From: a virus
Reading direction: 5' to 3' (one strand)
Virus record (IMG/VR): IMGVR_UViG_3300025009_000094
Coordinates: 2,527 to 66,526 of that record
Length of the DNA: 64,000 bases
The position numbers and the translations under genes are program-made. The notes beneath the pieces were generated by a model. That model ran no database searches. It saw only the letters and a list, made by a program, of their open reading frames with translations, and was not told where the DNA came from. Shown here piece by piece: positions 4,775 to 63,515 of the stretch. Within the stretch, counting starts at the first letter, position 1, and every line of letters begins with the position of its first letter.

Positions 4775-5105
4775 TCAGAATCCCGGCAAATGTTCTTTTT
4801 ATTATTTTTTCGGTCTGCATTCTCCCACTTTTTAAGCTCAGTCCCTTGTTGTTTGGGCATTGCAACTCTCTTATCTGCCCGTATTGGCGACATACTGCAG
4901 GTCTGAAGTGATAGACCGAACATCGCTTAGTGTCCGTGTCGAGCAAGATGCAGGTTAATGGTTCCCTATATTGCCTTTTAAGCCTATCTATCGTCTCCAC
5001 GGACATTGCTTTAATTGCGGATTTCAGGGTTTCGAGTTGAGATCTAAGCAAATATAGTGGACCACAACAATCTCCACACTGCTTGCAGTTGAATTGTTTA
5101 CTCAA
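4740..5105 (-). CDS. YkgJ-family CxxCxxCC cysteine-cluster protein
   Basis: FNCKQCGDCCG...C..L....RCSVYHFRPAVCRQY; probable TTG start after GGAGG. Confidence 0.8.
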   Translation of the reverse strand: MSKQFNCKQCGDCCGPLYLLRSQLETLKSAIKAMSVETIDRLKRQYREPLTCILLDTDTKRCSVYHFRPAVCRQYGQIRELQCPNNKGLSLKSGRMQTEKIIKRTFAGILSETIGWKELEE

Positions 5106-59887: not shown

Positions 59888-60163
59888 TCACCTTCTTTCT
59901 GAGCTAAGAGGGTTCGACGGGTCCCATCCTTGCTTTTGTGGTTGATACCCTACTTTTTCCCTTTTGTCGTTATCGAGTTGATAATTTAGCTGTTCAATAG
60001 CCTCAGCCATTTCCTCGATTTGCTTTGTGGCTAGGTTGATACGAGTTTGGTTATCGGTAGAGGTTTTTAGGGTTATGCCGATGAATTTACCCCAATAAAA
60101 AGCCCCTGCTGTAATAGCAAGGGTTAGAGCTAGGCATATTGATATTGTTAAGGGAGTTGGCAT
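59888..60163 (-). CDS. small membrane-anchored protein
   Basis: N-terminal TM then coiled coil. Confidence 0.55.
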   Translation of the reverse strand: MPTPLTISICLALTLAITAGAFYWGKFIGITLKTSTDNQTRINLATKQIEEMAEAIEQLNYQLDNDKREKVGYQPQKQGWDPSNPLSSERR

Positions 60164-60475
60164 TTAAGCATCCCACCCTTTCATAAAGCTTCCTTCTTCG
60201 TCTTGCTCATCTTCTATCTCTGACCAGTGTTTTCCGTTTTGGTAGGAATGGTCATGCGGTGCAGGAGAGATATACCTTGGCGTTGCTGTGCCGATTTCCT
60301 GCTCTTTTAGCTCAGGCTTGGACATAATGTAATAACGCATTTCGTCTAATGAATTATGGACAATAAGACCACCGCAAATACTGAAATTGTGGTGTTCCTT
60401 AACTTCCATATTATAAACATCTTCAAGCCCACAAGGTTTAATTGACTTGATTTTTACACTTGTCACGGTGCCCAT
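60164..60475 (-). CDS. terminase C-fragment: split intein C-half (41 aa) + C-extein
   Basis: VKIKSI...DVYNMEV..HHNF...LIVHN|SLDEMRYY; GGAAGGGA RBS before ATG 60475 (track start 60499). Confidence 0.85.
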   Translation of the reverse strand: MGTVTSVKIKSIKPCGLEDVYNMEVKEHHNFSICGGLIVHNSLDEMRYYIMSKPELKEQEIGTATPRYISPAPHDHSYQNGKHWSEIEDEQDEEGSFMKGWDA

Positions 60476-60989
60476 ATGTGTAATCCCTTCCTTGCTCATT
60501 AAACCTTTTGCGTAGTTGTTTCATTTTACAGTTATCTCCGCAATACTTGCTTCTTAAAGGGAATGCAGTTTCGTATTCATTACCACAGACAGTACACTTC
60601 TTCGCTACTTTGTTTTTGTTCCTCTTTTCCCAATTGTTTTTTCCATGCTCACTATGCCACTTCCTACCCTCTTCTGATCCGTGCCATTCTTTTGCCGCCT
60701 CAATTCCGGCAGATTGAAACCTCTTTATATGCTCATCAGTAATGGCTTTACCATGCAACGATAAATGATCACTTCTTTCCTTTAACTCTAGGTTATCTAT
60801 CTCGTTATTGCTTTTGTCAGTATCCTTATGGTGGACATCGTAACCTTTTAATATTGGACCATTATAAAACTCCCATACGTAACAATGTAAGCGTGGGCGT
60901 CTGCTATTAATATTTTTACTGCAAAGATAATACCCAGTTTTTTCGTCCCTGTTAAACCTTAACCCATTAAACTCAACTATCTTTTCCGT
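60438..60989 (-). CDS. free-standing HNH endonuclease between the split intein halves (apparent ACG start)
   Basis: open frame upstream of track ORF: IVEFNGLRFNRDEKTGYY...RLHCYVWEFYNG...DVHHKDTDKSNNEIDNL...H; C-terminal CTVC..YC..C. Confidence 0.8.
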   Translation of the reverse strand, partial: TEKIVEFNGLRFNRDEKTGYYLCSKNINSRRPRLHCYVWEFYNGPILKGYDVHHKDTDKSNNEIDNLELKERSDHLSLHGKAITDEHIKRFQSAGIEAAKEWHGSEEGRKWHSEHGKNNWEKRNKNKVAKKCTVCGNEYETAFPLRSKYCGDNCKMKQLRKRFNEQGRDYTYGHRDKCKNQVN

Positions 60990-61010
60990 AAAATCACATC
61001 TTTTCGTGGC

Positions 61011-63515
61011 TTATTTATCGGATATGTCAATTATAGAATCATCCGCGGTTAACTCTTTTACCATCTTCCATCCATTAGGAGTTAATATAGGATGGGTATC
61101 GGTGGCTTTGAATTTTCTTCCATCCTCAGTTTCAATCTCGAAAACAGCAACATTCTTCTTGGTCATTCTGACATCGTGGAACGATGATGTGGTGGGATTA
61201 CCATTATTCAGATCATAACAATGAACAAATCCAACCTTGCCAACCAAGTCCTTTATGGTGATGTCTCCATGCAATGTATTGACTATTGTATCACCCGTTA
61301 AGCAGTGATCATTCTTCTTAATCGGCTCGTCTCCATCAGGCTTCCATCTATAAGACTTAATCTCCTTGATCATATTAACGCACGTTCTAAAGATAAATAG
61401 CTTAGGCTTACCCTTGGGCCATACTTCCGTTTGTGGGTGTGGCCTGAGCTTGAGGTATTGCTTAACTCTCTGAATTCCTGACCACTTATTCTTGTCTACA
61501 ACAGTGTCGGCCTCAATACCATGTTCAGTAAATAACTCTGCCACCGACTTCTCAGCCGCTAAAGTTTTCTGATTAGCTGCACTATCAAATAGGGCATCTA
61601 GATAGCCCTTATGTCTAGGCCAACCCAAACTATTAGCAATGGCATGTATGCGCTTAGAGTGCCATTCTATCGTCTCTCCTGCCTTGTAATGCTCTGCTAT
61701 AACATATATATTTCCTTCTCCATCATAGGCGTAGAAATGACAGGCTAGGGGGGCTGCAAGGCCAGGGTCGATACTTATGTTGTCATACCAGTCGAGAGGA
61801 ATTTGAATAGGGTCAATAACATGTATTTCCTCGTTGAACTCCTTATAAACCAAACCTGACATTGCAACGAACTTACCGTATTGGCGGGATTCCCTTTCTT
61901 CTTCAGTCATCGTTTCCATGAGGGATTTGATTTCATCAGGAGATAAGTGCGGATTATCAGCCCACTCCATGAGCCAGTACTTTACGTTGGGGTCGTTCAA
62001 TTCATTAATGTAGATTGTATCGTATATCCATGTTAGACCTTGCAATGGAGTCATTGTACCCCATATTTCGCCACGGGTATCAATAATCCGCATCTTGCAC
62101 TCATCGTATATCTCTTTTGGCGGTTCCTCGTCGAACCATATCCAGCCTTGGCTAGTACCCTGGAATTTAGCTCTGCCTTGATCGCATGACTTAAACCCTA
62201 TGGTGTGCCCATTCTTCAGGACAATAAAGTCAAGGATAGCATTTTCGGGGTCATCTTTTCGCCCTGACCTGACATGAATATCCGCTATTTCAGCTTTTGG
62301 TAGCCATTTAAGAACTTCCTTTTGAGCAACGTCACGCTGTACCTCGTTTGTAAGGGATACAACCCAGCCATTACTAGGTTTTTTGTCAGGCTTATGTGGA
62401 TGTGTACCCGTTGCCATCCATACCGCTTCTACAGCTCCACAGACCGTTTTTCCGGTATTGTGATGAATAACTCCATCCATGTAATAGTTCTCGTACTCAG
62501 GAACAGTAAAGTCCCATTTGTAATCTTTCCTATTAAGTGATATACTTATTACAACCGAAAAGTTTTTACTATTATGGGAGGAATTATCTAATGTCGAGGT
62601 GTAACAAATTGATTCTCTCGGATGAACAAGTATCTCAGATTCGCATATGGGTTGAGGTTGAGAAAAAGACTCTAAAGTGGGTTTCTGAACAAATTGGATG
62701 CGTGAATCAGAATGTGACAAAAATATGTCGCAAGCATGACATCCAGACGCAACGCACTGGTCCAAGGAGTGGAGAAGGTCATCCAAATTGGAAGGGCGGG
62801 CGTCAGTATGACAAACATGGTTACGTTCTAGTTTACGCGAAAGGTCATCCTCGCGCCCGCAAGCCTCGTTGTGCCTATACCTATGAACATATTCTTGTAA
62901 TGGAGAGACATCTTGGACGCTACTTGCTTCCCGGAGAGGTTGTTCATCATATAAATGGAGAAAATGGCGATAATCGAATTGAGAATCTTGAACTCTTTGA
63001 ATCAAACGCTCAACATTTGCGCCATGAATTAACTGGTCATACACCTCAATGGACCGAGGATGGTAAAGTTCGCATCCAACTTGGCATTGAGAAATCTGCT
63101 CGTATAAACCATTCGAGAGCAAAACACGATGATTTAGTGATGCTGTAAATTTACTGCCATCGCTTAGGGATATATCATACAAAGAATCTATATCATCATG
63201 ATGAAACGGTCTTAACGCTTTTGTAATAACAAGGGCGTTTTTCTTTTCGTCATATGCGTATACATGGAAATCTTCATTTATGTTTTGGACTTCCCTATAT
63301 TCTTTCATAATGGGATCGTATATTTTACTTTCCCCCGCTATGCAACGATTGCCCCCCCATACCCAGCGATTGCGATTAACAGACTTATGAAAATCCTCCT
63401 GCTTCTTATGGGGAATATAATAGCGAAGGGCTTCTTCTTTTCGCCTACGAGCTAGTTCTTGCCGGACAACCTCAAGGGAAGGGATATCCTTATTTGTTAG
63501 TTTTGGTTTAGCCAT
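61011..63515 (-). CDS. terminase large subunit N-fragment with cis intein and terminal N-intein
   Basis: GGNR|intein|TGKT Walker A, WFDEEPP Walker B, TMTPL, SIDPG, KKNDH|CL. Confidence 0.92.
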   Translation of the reverse strand: MAKPKLTNKDIPSLEVVRQELARRRKEEALRYYIPHKKQEDFHKSVNRNRWVWGGNRCIAGESKIYDPIMKEYREVQNINEDFHVYAYDEKKNALVITKALRPFHHDDIDSLYDISLSDGSKFTASLNHRVLLSNGLYEQISQCQVGCELYHPRSIEVYDQLIHGANVERLIQRVQDSQFDYRHFLHLYDEQPLREASSVQDVSPLQEYVHRYRHNEACGREDDLSRKLERNHVCHTDARPSNLDDLLHSLDQCVASGCHACDIFLSHSDSRIQFVQKPTLESFSQPQPICESEILVHPRESICYTSTLDNSSHNSKNFSVVISISLNRKDYKWDFTVPEYENYYMDGVIHHNTGKTVCGAVEAVWMATGTHPHKPDKKPSNGWVVSLTNEVQRDVAQKEVLKWLPKAEIADIHVRSGRKDDPENAILDFIVLKNGHTIGFKSCDQGRAKFQGTSQGWIWFDEEPPKEIYDECKMRIIDTRGEIWGTMTPLQGLTWIYDTIYINELNDPNVKYWLMEWADNPHLSPDEIKSLMETMTEEERESRQYGKFVAMSGLVYKEFNEEIHVIDPIQIPLDWYDNISIDPGLAAPLACHFYAYDGEGNIYVIAEHYKAGETIEWHSKRIHAIANSLGWPRHKGYLDALFDSAANQKTLAAEKSVAELFTEHGIEADTVVDKNKWSGIQRVKQYLKLRPHPQTEVWPKGKPKLFIFRTCVNMIKEIKSYRWKPDGDEPIKKNDHCLTGDTIVNTLHGDITIKDLVGKVGFVHCYDLNNGNPTTSSFHDVRMTKKNVAVFEIETEDGRKFKATDTHPILTPNGWKMVKELTADDSIIDISDK
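61014..61304 (-). other. split intein N-half (97 aa)
   Basis: CLTGDTIV block A, ATDTHPIL block B, then stop. Confidence 0.9.
62457..63344 (-). other. cis intein (296 aa) in terminase Walker A
   Basis: CIAGESKI block A, ASLNHRVL block B, WDFTVPEYENYYMDGVIHHN|T blocks F/G. Confidence 0.9.
62591..63148 (+). CDS. HNH homing endonuclease encoded antisense inside the intein
   Basis: GGGAGG RBS; HTH, HPNWKGG, HPRA...YEHILVME..LGR, EVVHHINGENGDNRIENL. Confidence 0.9.
   Translation: MSRCNKLILSDEQVSQIRIWVEVEKKTLKWVSEQIGCVNQNVTKICRKHDIQTQRTGPRSGEGHPNWKGGRQYDKHGYVLVYAKGHPRARKPRCAYTYEHILVMERHLGRYLLPGEVVHHINGENGDNRIENLELFESNAQHLRHELTGHTPQWTEDGKVRIQLGIEKSARINHSRAKHDDLVML

Follow-up and report, generated by a model that had tools for sequence, protein, structure and literature searches.

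The window analysed here is a 64,000-nucleotide stretch of DNA comprising bases 2527–66526 of the 66,526-base virus record IMGVR_UViG_3300025009_000094. The record is rated 100% complete and belongs to an uncultured phage of approximately 66 kb. The gene for the large terminase (TerL) of this phage is encoded in three pieces, and its nuclease motif is interrupted by an intein whose two halves lie in separate open reading frames (ORFs). The genome was searched for other TerL genes and holds only this single copy, which rules out a second intact TerL elsewhere. All genes of the split-intein locus are on the minus strand except an antisense HNH_3 gene within a further intein (intein 1). The TerL N-fragment ORF (61011–63515, minus strand) encodes 834 residues followed by TAA. 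It consists of extein residues 1–57, the contiguous intein 1, extein residues 354–737 and the N-terminal half of the split intein (IntN). The C-terminal half (IntC) and the remainder of TerL follow in their own ORF, with an HNH_3 frame in between. We consider it probable, at roughly 85%, that this is a genuine, naturally split class-1 intein that interrupts the sole large-terminase gene and works as a split intein.

The extein segment of residues 354–737 (61305–62456, minus strand) contains the ATPase and most of the nuclease, matches Terminase_6N (5.3e-16) and terminates in KKNDH. The tail of the ORF reads ...GDEPIKKNDH/CLTGDTIVNT...IIDISDK (a slash marks a border between extein and intein) and then TAA (61011–61013, minus strand). 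IntN (61014–61304, minus strand) corresponds to ORF residues 738–834 and carries Cys1 (CLTGDT) and a block B of T-D-T-H. A preliminary description of this DNA had placed a 97-residue IntN after KKNDH and up to the TAA, and the ORF coordinates and the Intein_splicing match confirm this to the residue. The HNH_3 open frame (60438–61010, minus strand) has 190 codons and its own TAA (60438–60440), with the HNH_3 domain at approximately 60765–60890. The IntC ORF starts at ATG 60475, overlaps the end of the HNH frame and uses a reading frame other than that of IntN and the HNH. A Shine-Dalgarno-like AAGGAAGGG (60485–60493, minus strand) lies 9 nt upstream of this ATG, within the 3′ end of the HNH frame. 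A second possible ATG at 60499 is weaker, and ATG 60475 is also the start in the database gene call (P0001) and in the relatives P0002–P0004. The product of 103 residues reads MGTVTSVKIKSIKPCGLEDVYNMEVKEHHNFSICGGLIVHN/SLDEMRYYIMSKPELKE... and consists of a 41-residue IntC (60353–60475, minus strand; MGTVTSVKIKSIK...GGLIVHN) and a C-extein of 62 residues (60164–60352, minus strand; SLDEMRYY...GWDA, then TAA), the first Ser of which would be the +1 nucleophile. The separate ORF with its own ribosome-binding site, the length of 41 residues and the VHN/SLDEMRYY border are thus exactly as first described. The whole split element (61304–60353) measures 952 nt, a length of 3n+1. Pfam Intein_splicing is found in both the TerL ORF (1.4e-17) and the IntC ORF (4.6e-05).

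The borders of the element are set by TerL proteins of three related phages that have no intein, at loci L002 (89–90% identical), L003 (77%) and L004 (71%). These read KKNDHGLDEMRYYIMSKPELKE, VNDHALDELRYY and KNDHAMDDLKYY, respectively, with the uninterrupted motifs NDH/GLDEMRYY, NDH/ALDELRYY and NDH/AMDDLKYY (here the slash marks the position of the window's intein). BLASTP aligned residues 1–57, residues 354–737 and the C-extein of the window TerL colinearly with residues 4–60, 61–445 and 446–507 of the L002 protein. The identity to L002 is 89% over 388 residues for the extein 354–737 and 67% for the C-extein. Removal of the inteins restores both the Walker A sequence GGNR/TGKT and the C-terminal nuclease motif. 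The joined halves had been expected to give a terminase motif, DH-SLDEMRY, and the colinearity with NDH-GLDEMRYY of L002 agrees with this. In the nearest solved terminase, 5oe8, the stretch aligned to the junction is DKPVKQNDHQLDADRYFV (NDHQLDADRY) and is continuous. These alignments place the split intein within the conserved nuclease motif NDH-x-L-D-E-x-R-Y, where it separates the His from the Asp that follows. We take this His, and the Asp three residues on, to be metal ligands of the terminase nuclease.

The residues needed for class-1 splicing are all present. The nucleophile is Cys738 of the TerL ORF (Cys1 of the intein), in a column that is invariant in 35 IntN sequences, and the block B Thr and His are likewise invariant across the 35. 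The terminal pair His40-Asn41 is invariant across 37 aligned IntC sequences, and the +1 residue is Cys or Ser in every row of the alignment, Ser in the window. The pairing of Cys1 with Ser+1 does occur, since the characterised split intein gp41-1 has the native junction SSS, according to the accessible text on it (PMC7090010). Among solved structures, the mini-intein 4o1r (PDB) comes nearest to IntN by sequence (E 4e-8). Residues 7–41 of IntC align with residues 3–37 of the 37-residue chain B in the two-chain intein entry 4qfq. The entries nearest to IntN (4o1r and 1mi8) and to IntC (7cfv and 4qfq) have the class-1 HINT blocks in common with the window halves, and a HINT fold would be expected from these sequence matches and from Pfam Intein_splicing. 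However, the similarity to solved inteins is distant (E 4e-8 and 7e-4), so that the split intein is best placed in a lineage of its own. gp41-1 gave no match among the solved inteins at E up to 1. The break point appears equivalent to that of 4qfq. Around the break, a contiguous relative (L070) reads ...IIDISD-STSIS-SVKIKAI..., compared with IIDISDK(stop) and MGTVT-SVKIKSI in the window.

The stop at 61011 and the change of frame had been flagged as possible errors. The probable source run of the window, X1, spans the entire stretch. We examined Logan contigs of three further runs (X5, X6 and X14), which are filed under three studies other than that of X1. The contigs (X5 records 7, 9 and 10; X6 record 14, covering 60227–61367; X14 records 4 and 6) showed 0 differences and 0 gaps relative to the window. 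The TAA at 61011–61013 is seen in X5 record 10 and X6 record 14, the ACG codon that follows it is covered by contigs of X5 and X6, and the frame-change zone (60438–60524) is covered by X5, X6 and X14. A sequencing or assembly artefact is thereby ruled out. The exact 103-residue IntC protein is recorded on 20 contigs. A metagenome contig of 164,428 bases (L091, L092) contains two copies identical to the window locus, 66,392 nt apart. This suggests that the contig is an assembled concatemer of a unit genome of approximately 66.4 kb, and that concatemers are replicating. Run X6 also contains an empty allele. A 201-nt contig of a related phage (X6 record 15) is intein-free and joins position 61305 straight to 60328. 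Its flanks are approximately 90–93% identical to the window, and the 24 other letters (eight codons) that lie between the two positions read ALDELRYH on the minus strand. The depth of the empty-allele contig is 17.7, compared with 11.2 for the intein-bearing contig. The community of run X6 therefore contains the empty TerL allele side by side with the intein-bearing phage.

The HNH frame between the halves is in the same frame as IntN, begins directly past the TAA, and is intact and full length. Its domain matches Pfam HNH_3 (8.4e-14, residues 40–81) and phrog_15471 (2.7e-30). The frame has no ATG, GTG or TTG from the TAA until TTG 60758, which is past the HNH motif, and no Shine-Dalgarno core was found upstream of it. 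A canonical start is present in 56 of the 57 distinct family HNH frames with an alignable N-terminus (ATG in 55), the window being the sole exception. The commonest position of the family ATG (23 cases) coincides exactly with ACG 61007–61005 (minus strand), the second codon past the IntN stop. A GGAG or GAGG core is seen within 20 nt upstream of the ATG in 42 of the 56 relatives. The preliminary description had a free-standing HNH gene here; an HNH_3 frame does lie between the halves, but it lacks a canonical start and a Shine-Dalgarno sequence. We lean slightly towards a recent silencing of the HNH gene in this phage. Weak translation is a reasonable second possibility, held at less than even odds; ribosomes would then start at the near-cognate ACG or re-initiate there after terminating at the IntN stop, which lies 3 nt upstream.

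Relatives of the element were collected with a profile of free-standing IntC-plus-C-extein proteins searched against IMG/VR, and the best 80 of 176 related stretches were analysed. The protein database holds 28 such free-standing proteins (71–142 residues) besides that of the window. Both halves were found in 74 of the 80 loci, the other six being cut by contig ends. A split intein with a homologous HNH between the halves (36–57% identical by tblastn) is present in 67 of the 74, a split intein without HNH in four, and a contiguous mini-intein in three. A contiguous intein with an in-frame HNH was found in 0 of the 74 loci, and we rejected such an intein, once broken, as the ancestral form. When distinct elements are counted and six metagenome loci are included (n=55), 50 are split with HNH, two are split without HNH and three are contiguous. 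The split layout is thus the rule in this family. The insertion site is shared nearly throughout, (N/H)DH/C...HN/(C/S)xDxxRY, where only the slashes outside the brackets mark borders. A TerL clade (L060, L066, L078 and L082) has the split intein and HNH four residues further on (...THSPEE/C...HN/CRYAVM), so the family uses two neighbouring insertion points.

The family contains four forms. Bare mini-inteins are seen at L055, L070 and L071, and split inteins without an endonuclease at L075, L087 and in the cultured phage BL3. Split inteins with HNH make up the bulk. The fourth form is found in the metagenome loci L103 (1520–3544), L106 (749–2686), L114 (1–2037) and L118 (1637–3724), which have a contiguous intein at NDH/C...HN/C. 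Each of these inteins encloses a homologous HNH ORF of 178–217 residues, encoded in the −1 frame of the same strand. The two frames both remain open: the intein frame has 0 stops over 134–181 codons, compared with 14–21 in the third frame. At the junctions of the loci L011–L123, the HNH stop lies 4–65 nt within the IntC coding sequence (60438–60475 in the window), and IntC is in the +1 frame relative to the HNH in 51 of 58 distinct junctions, that of the window included. The HNH and IntC genes therefore share a conserved overlap. The IntC frame of the window has 10 stops across the HNH span, and the intein is therefore fully split: a single mutation would not make it contiguous. As a separate observation, many loci, and gp3 of BL3, have an IntC frame that stays open for a further 30–100 codons on the upstream side, where certain peptide motifs recur. 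Most split loci have fewer stops in the IntC frame than in the third frame across the HNH. We considered this as the vestige of a linker and dropped the idea, because codon structure alone suffices to explain it.

Inteins of this family also occupy the TerL nuclease motif of two cultured phages. In Lactobacillus phage CL2 (NC_028835), TerL reads KAHDH/CLTGDT...VRVR(stop) and is followed by an annotated HNH endonuclease, homologous to that of the window, and then by an IntC ORF (L128, 2490–2774; ...VRVKSVRPIG...FIVHN/CMDATRY) that is unannotated in GenBank. In Brochothrix phage BL3 (NC_015254; DKDNH/CVTGDT...HN/CIDATRY), TerL ends in IntN, there is no HNH between the halves, and IntC with the C-extein (L129, 2311–2607) is annotated only as ‘gp3’. 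The PHROGs entry for such IntC-plus-C-extein ORFs, phrog_28563, is of ‘unknown function’. Both phages differ from the window in having Cys+1; moreover, the HNH of CL2 has an ATG, and BL3 is without an HNH gene. When the whole locus was compared with cultured phages as DNA, the only match was 92 nt long, in BL3; it was the protein search that found the carriers. A literature search on CL2 and BL3 turned up no discussion of an intein in either phage. Both phages were isolated and propagated, and a TerL encoded in pieces evidently can therefore work. Of the evidence for trans-splicing, this viability is the best, though it is indirect.

The N-fragment ORF contains a further intein at the Walker A loop. 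Intein 1 (62457–63344, minus strand) comprises residues 58–353 (296 residues, GGNR/C...HHN/TGKT). Its boundaries follow from the colinearity with the intein-free L002 TerL, and the best stretch of the Pfam Intein_splicing match is residues 77–353. It is contiguous and therefore would be expected to splice in cis. An HNH_3 gene lies within it on the opposite strand (62591–63148, plus strand), with an ATG at 62591 after GGGAGG and a frame that is open from GTG 62537. This gene matches Pfam HNH_3 (2.4e-10) and HNH families of PHROG. Across it, the TerL frame has 0 stops, whereas the two remaining frames of the minus strand have 8 and 19. The antisense gene was shuffled 20,000 times by synonymous codons, and in 0 of these shuffles did the TerL frame stay open. 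A P-loop intein with an antisense HNH is also present in other TerLs (viral loci L130 and L131). With a single TerL in three pieces, the most direct reading is that the enzyme matures through two splicing events, one in cis and one in trans. That one terminase would need both kinds of splicing had been proposed in the preliminary description, and it is implied by the contiguous P-loop intein together with the split intein at the nuclease site.

We therefore propose the following scheme. Two polypeptides would be made: TerL-N, with the cis-spliced P-loop intein and the 97-residue IntN, and the 103-residue protein consisting of IntC and the last 62 residues of TerL. The latter would have a translation start of its own, at the Shine-Dalgarno site and ATG described above. 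The halves may associate through the acidic end strand of IntN (...ADDSIIDISD) and the basic first strand of IntC (VKIKSIK). Trans-splicing through Cys1 and Ser+1 would then yield a TerL of approximately 503 residues that reads ...KKNDH-SLDEMRYY.... Inteins of this family are accompanied by a homing-endonuclease gene of the HNH_3 type, which presumably carries the element into TerL alleles that lack it. The evidence for homing is circumstantial: the HNH travels with the intein in the 67 loci mentioned above, and an empty allele coexists with the element in X6. What we infer is that the halves associate and splice, that the element homes, and how far the HNH is expressed.

Several points weigh against a working split intein. 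Splicing is deduced here from sequence alone. Most members of the family have Cys+1, and the Ser+1 of the window is in the minority. The Intein_splicing match of the IntC ORF (23.7 bits) is below the Pfam cut-off of 35.8, as is expected for a 41-residue piece, because just the last 38 positions of the profile are present. The confirming runs are assembled contigs, which hide rare variants, and they stem from groundwater and sediment of 2014–2016 that may belong to one campaign. The HNH lies in frame with IntN past one stop and has no start, which taken by itself fits a once-contiguous intein that has been broken. A rival reading is a non-covalent complex of the TerL pieces, in which the intein halves would be a dimerisation module and no peptide bond would form. 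There is a precedent in NrdA of phage Aeh1, which is fractured by a homing endonuclease without splicing and is active as two chains, as given in the accessible text of PMC2677866. In the window phage, this is improbable: all of the splicing residues (Cys1, the block B Thr and His, His-Asn and the +1 Cys or Ser) are conserved and present. An unspliced intein of approximately 140 residues would moreover separate the His and Asp of a motif that is continuous in the intein-free relatives and in 5oe8.

The missing HNH start, the single TAA between IntN and the HNH, and the 3n+1 length would also fit a dead gene, in which a once-contiguous intein of a defective phage was disrupted by a nonsense mutation together with a frameshift. 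This is very unlikely, as no locus of the family has the in-frame HNH that such an ancestor requires, and the Shine-Dalgarno sequence and ATG of IntC are placed as in the relatives. The same sequence recurs in the runs of several studies and, for the IntC protein, on the 20 contigs; the record is rated complete, the 164-kb contig suggests replication, and cultured phages of the same layout are viable. The in-frame continuation past the TAA and the start-less HNH could instead reflect recoding, with read-through of the TAA and a frameshift near 60438–60524 producing one IntN-HNH-IntC intein; the nearly constant +1 relation of IntC to the HNH would agree with this. Among relatives, however, the HNH is in frame 0, 1 or 2 relative to IntN in 11, 15 and 23 of 49 cases. 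No conserved recoding therefore links the two, and read-through is no mechanism of the family. The +1 relation is more simply explained by the shared overlap of HNH and IntC at their junction, which is also present in the contiguous relatives with a nested HNH. TAA closes the portal ORF as well as the IntC ORF, and no tRNA gene, suppressor or other, was found in the window, so reassignment or suppression of TAA is unlikely too. We regard recoding as hardly credible, and a split intein that splices in trans remains the reading we prefer.

The arrangement has known counterparts. Fractured genes, in which the halves of a split intein flank a free-standing endonuclease gene, were described from ocean metagenomes, with 88–105 residues for IntN and 33–54 for IntC (Dassa et al. 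2009, PMC2677866). The preliminary description had stated that such genes, one in a terminase included, were already on record, and that paper bears it out. The fractured genes and the window locus share the two-ORF layout, lengths within these ranges, oppositely charged facing strands and phage-like hosts that act on DNA. The accessible text of Dassa et al. gives GIY-YIG or Vsr-like endonucleases and an HNH fracture as a prediction, whereas the window has HNH_3; the single terminase locus there is gp17-like, with an unusual break point and a C part of 122 residues. Another essential phage gene is known to have the order IntN, HNH ORF and IntC, with HN in block G followed by S; it carries a different intein and is likened to the window by description.

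The inteins AceL-TerL and GOS-TerL have an atypical split with a very short N part. They are natural splits in large-terminase genes of metagenomic phages, as is the intein of the window, and this likeness, too, is by description. Both are used as tools, according to the accessible texts (PMC7891396, PMC7090010). Antisense or out-of-frame endonucleases in contiguous inteins were reported from actinobacteriophages by Gosselin et al. 2025 (bioRxiv 10.1101/2025.01.02.630785). The former arrangement resembles intein 1 and the latter L103, L106, L114 and L118. In the accessible text of that preprint, HNH occurs only as an in-frame domain, whereas it is antisense in intein 1 and nested out of frame in these four loci. 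Our literature search, which left most subscription journals and supplements outside its reach, found no description of a TerL split intein at the canonical site with an HNH_3 gene. The concept of fractured genes has been known since 2009 and the layout is common in phages, and the window locus leaves this unchanged. Two features are particular to the window phage: its HNH frame lacks a start, and a single terminase carries inteins of both types.

Under the proposed scheme, packaging would depend on two splicing events in one enzyme, in cis at the ATPase P-loop and in trans within the active site of the nuclease. Annotation does not recognise the presumed trans-splicing family, large as it is, and such terminases look truncated in genome records. 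The family would offer many diverged natural split pairs (Cys1 combined with Cys+1 or with Ser+1) for screening as orthogonal ligation tools, and a homologous series in which to follow homing endonucleases as they enter inteins, split them and later leave them. Tentatively, the window phage may have captured a step of endonuclease loss, with the HNH frame still intact over 189 codons and its start (ATG to ACG) and ribosome-binding site gone. If so, the element would stand midway between mobile split inteins with HNH and fixed split inteins without it (BL3, L075 and L087). The family at the TerL nuclease site would then show the whole proposed life cycle of a split intein in one homologous series, and at least 50 distinct natural IntN/IntC pairs would be candidates for orthogonal trans-splicing tools.

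Next to the split element, an ORF of 91 residues (59888–60163, minus strand) with a hydrophobic N-terminus and no Pfam or PHROG match lies between the C-terminal piece of TerL and the portal gene; L002 has a conserved counterpart (4828–5103).

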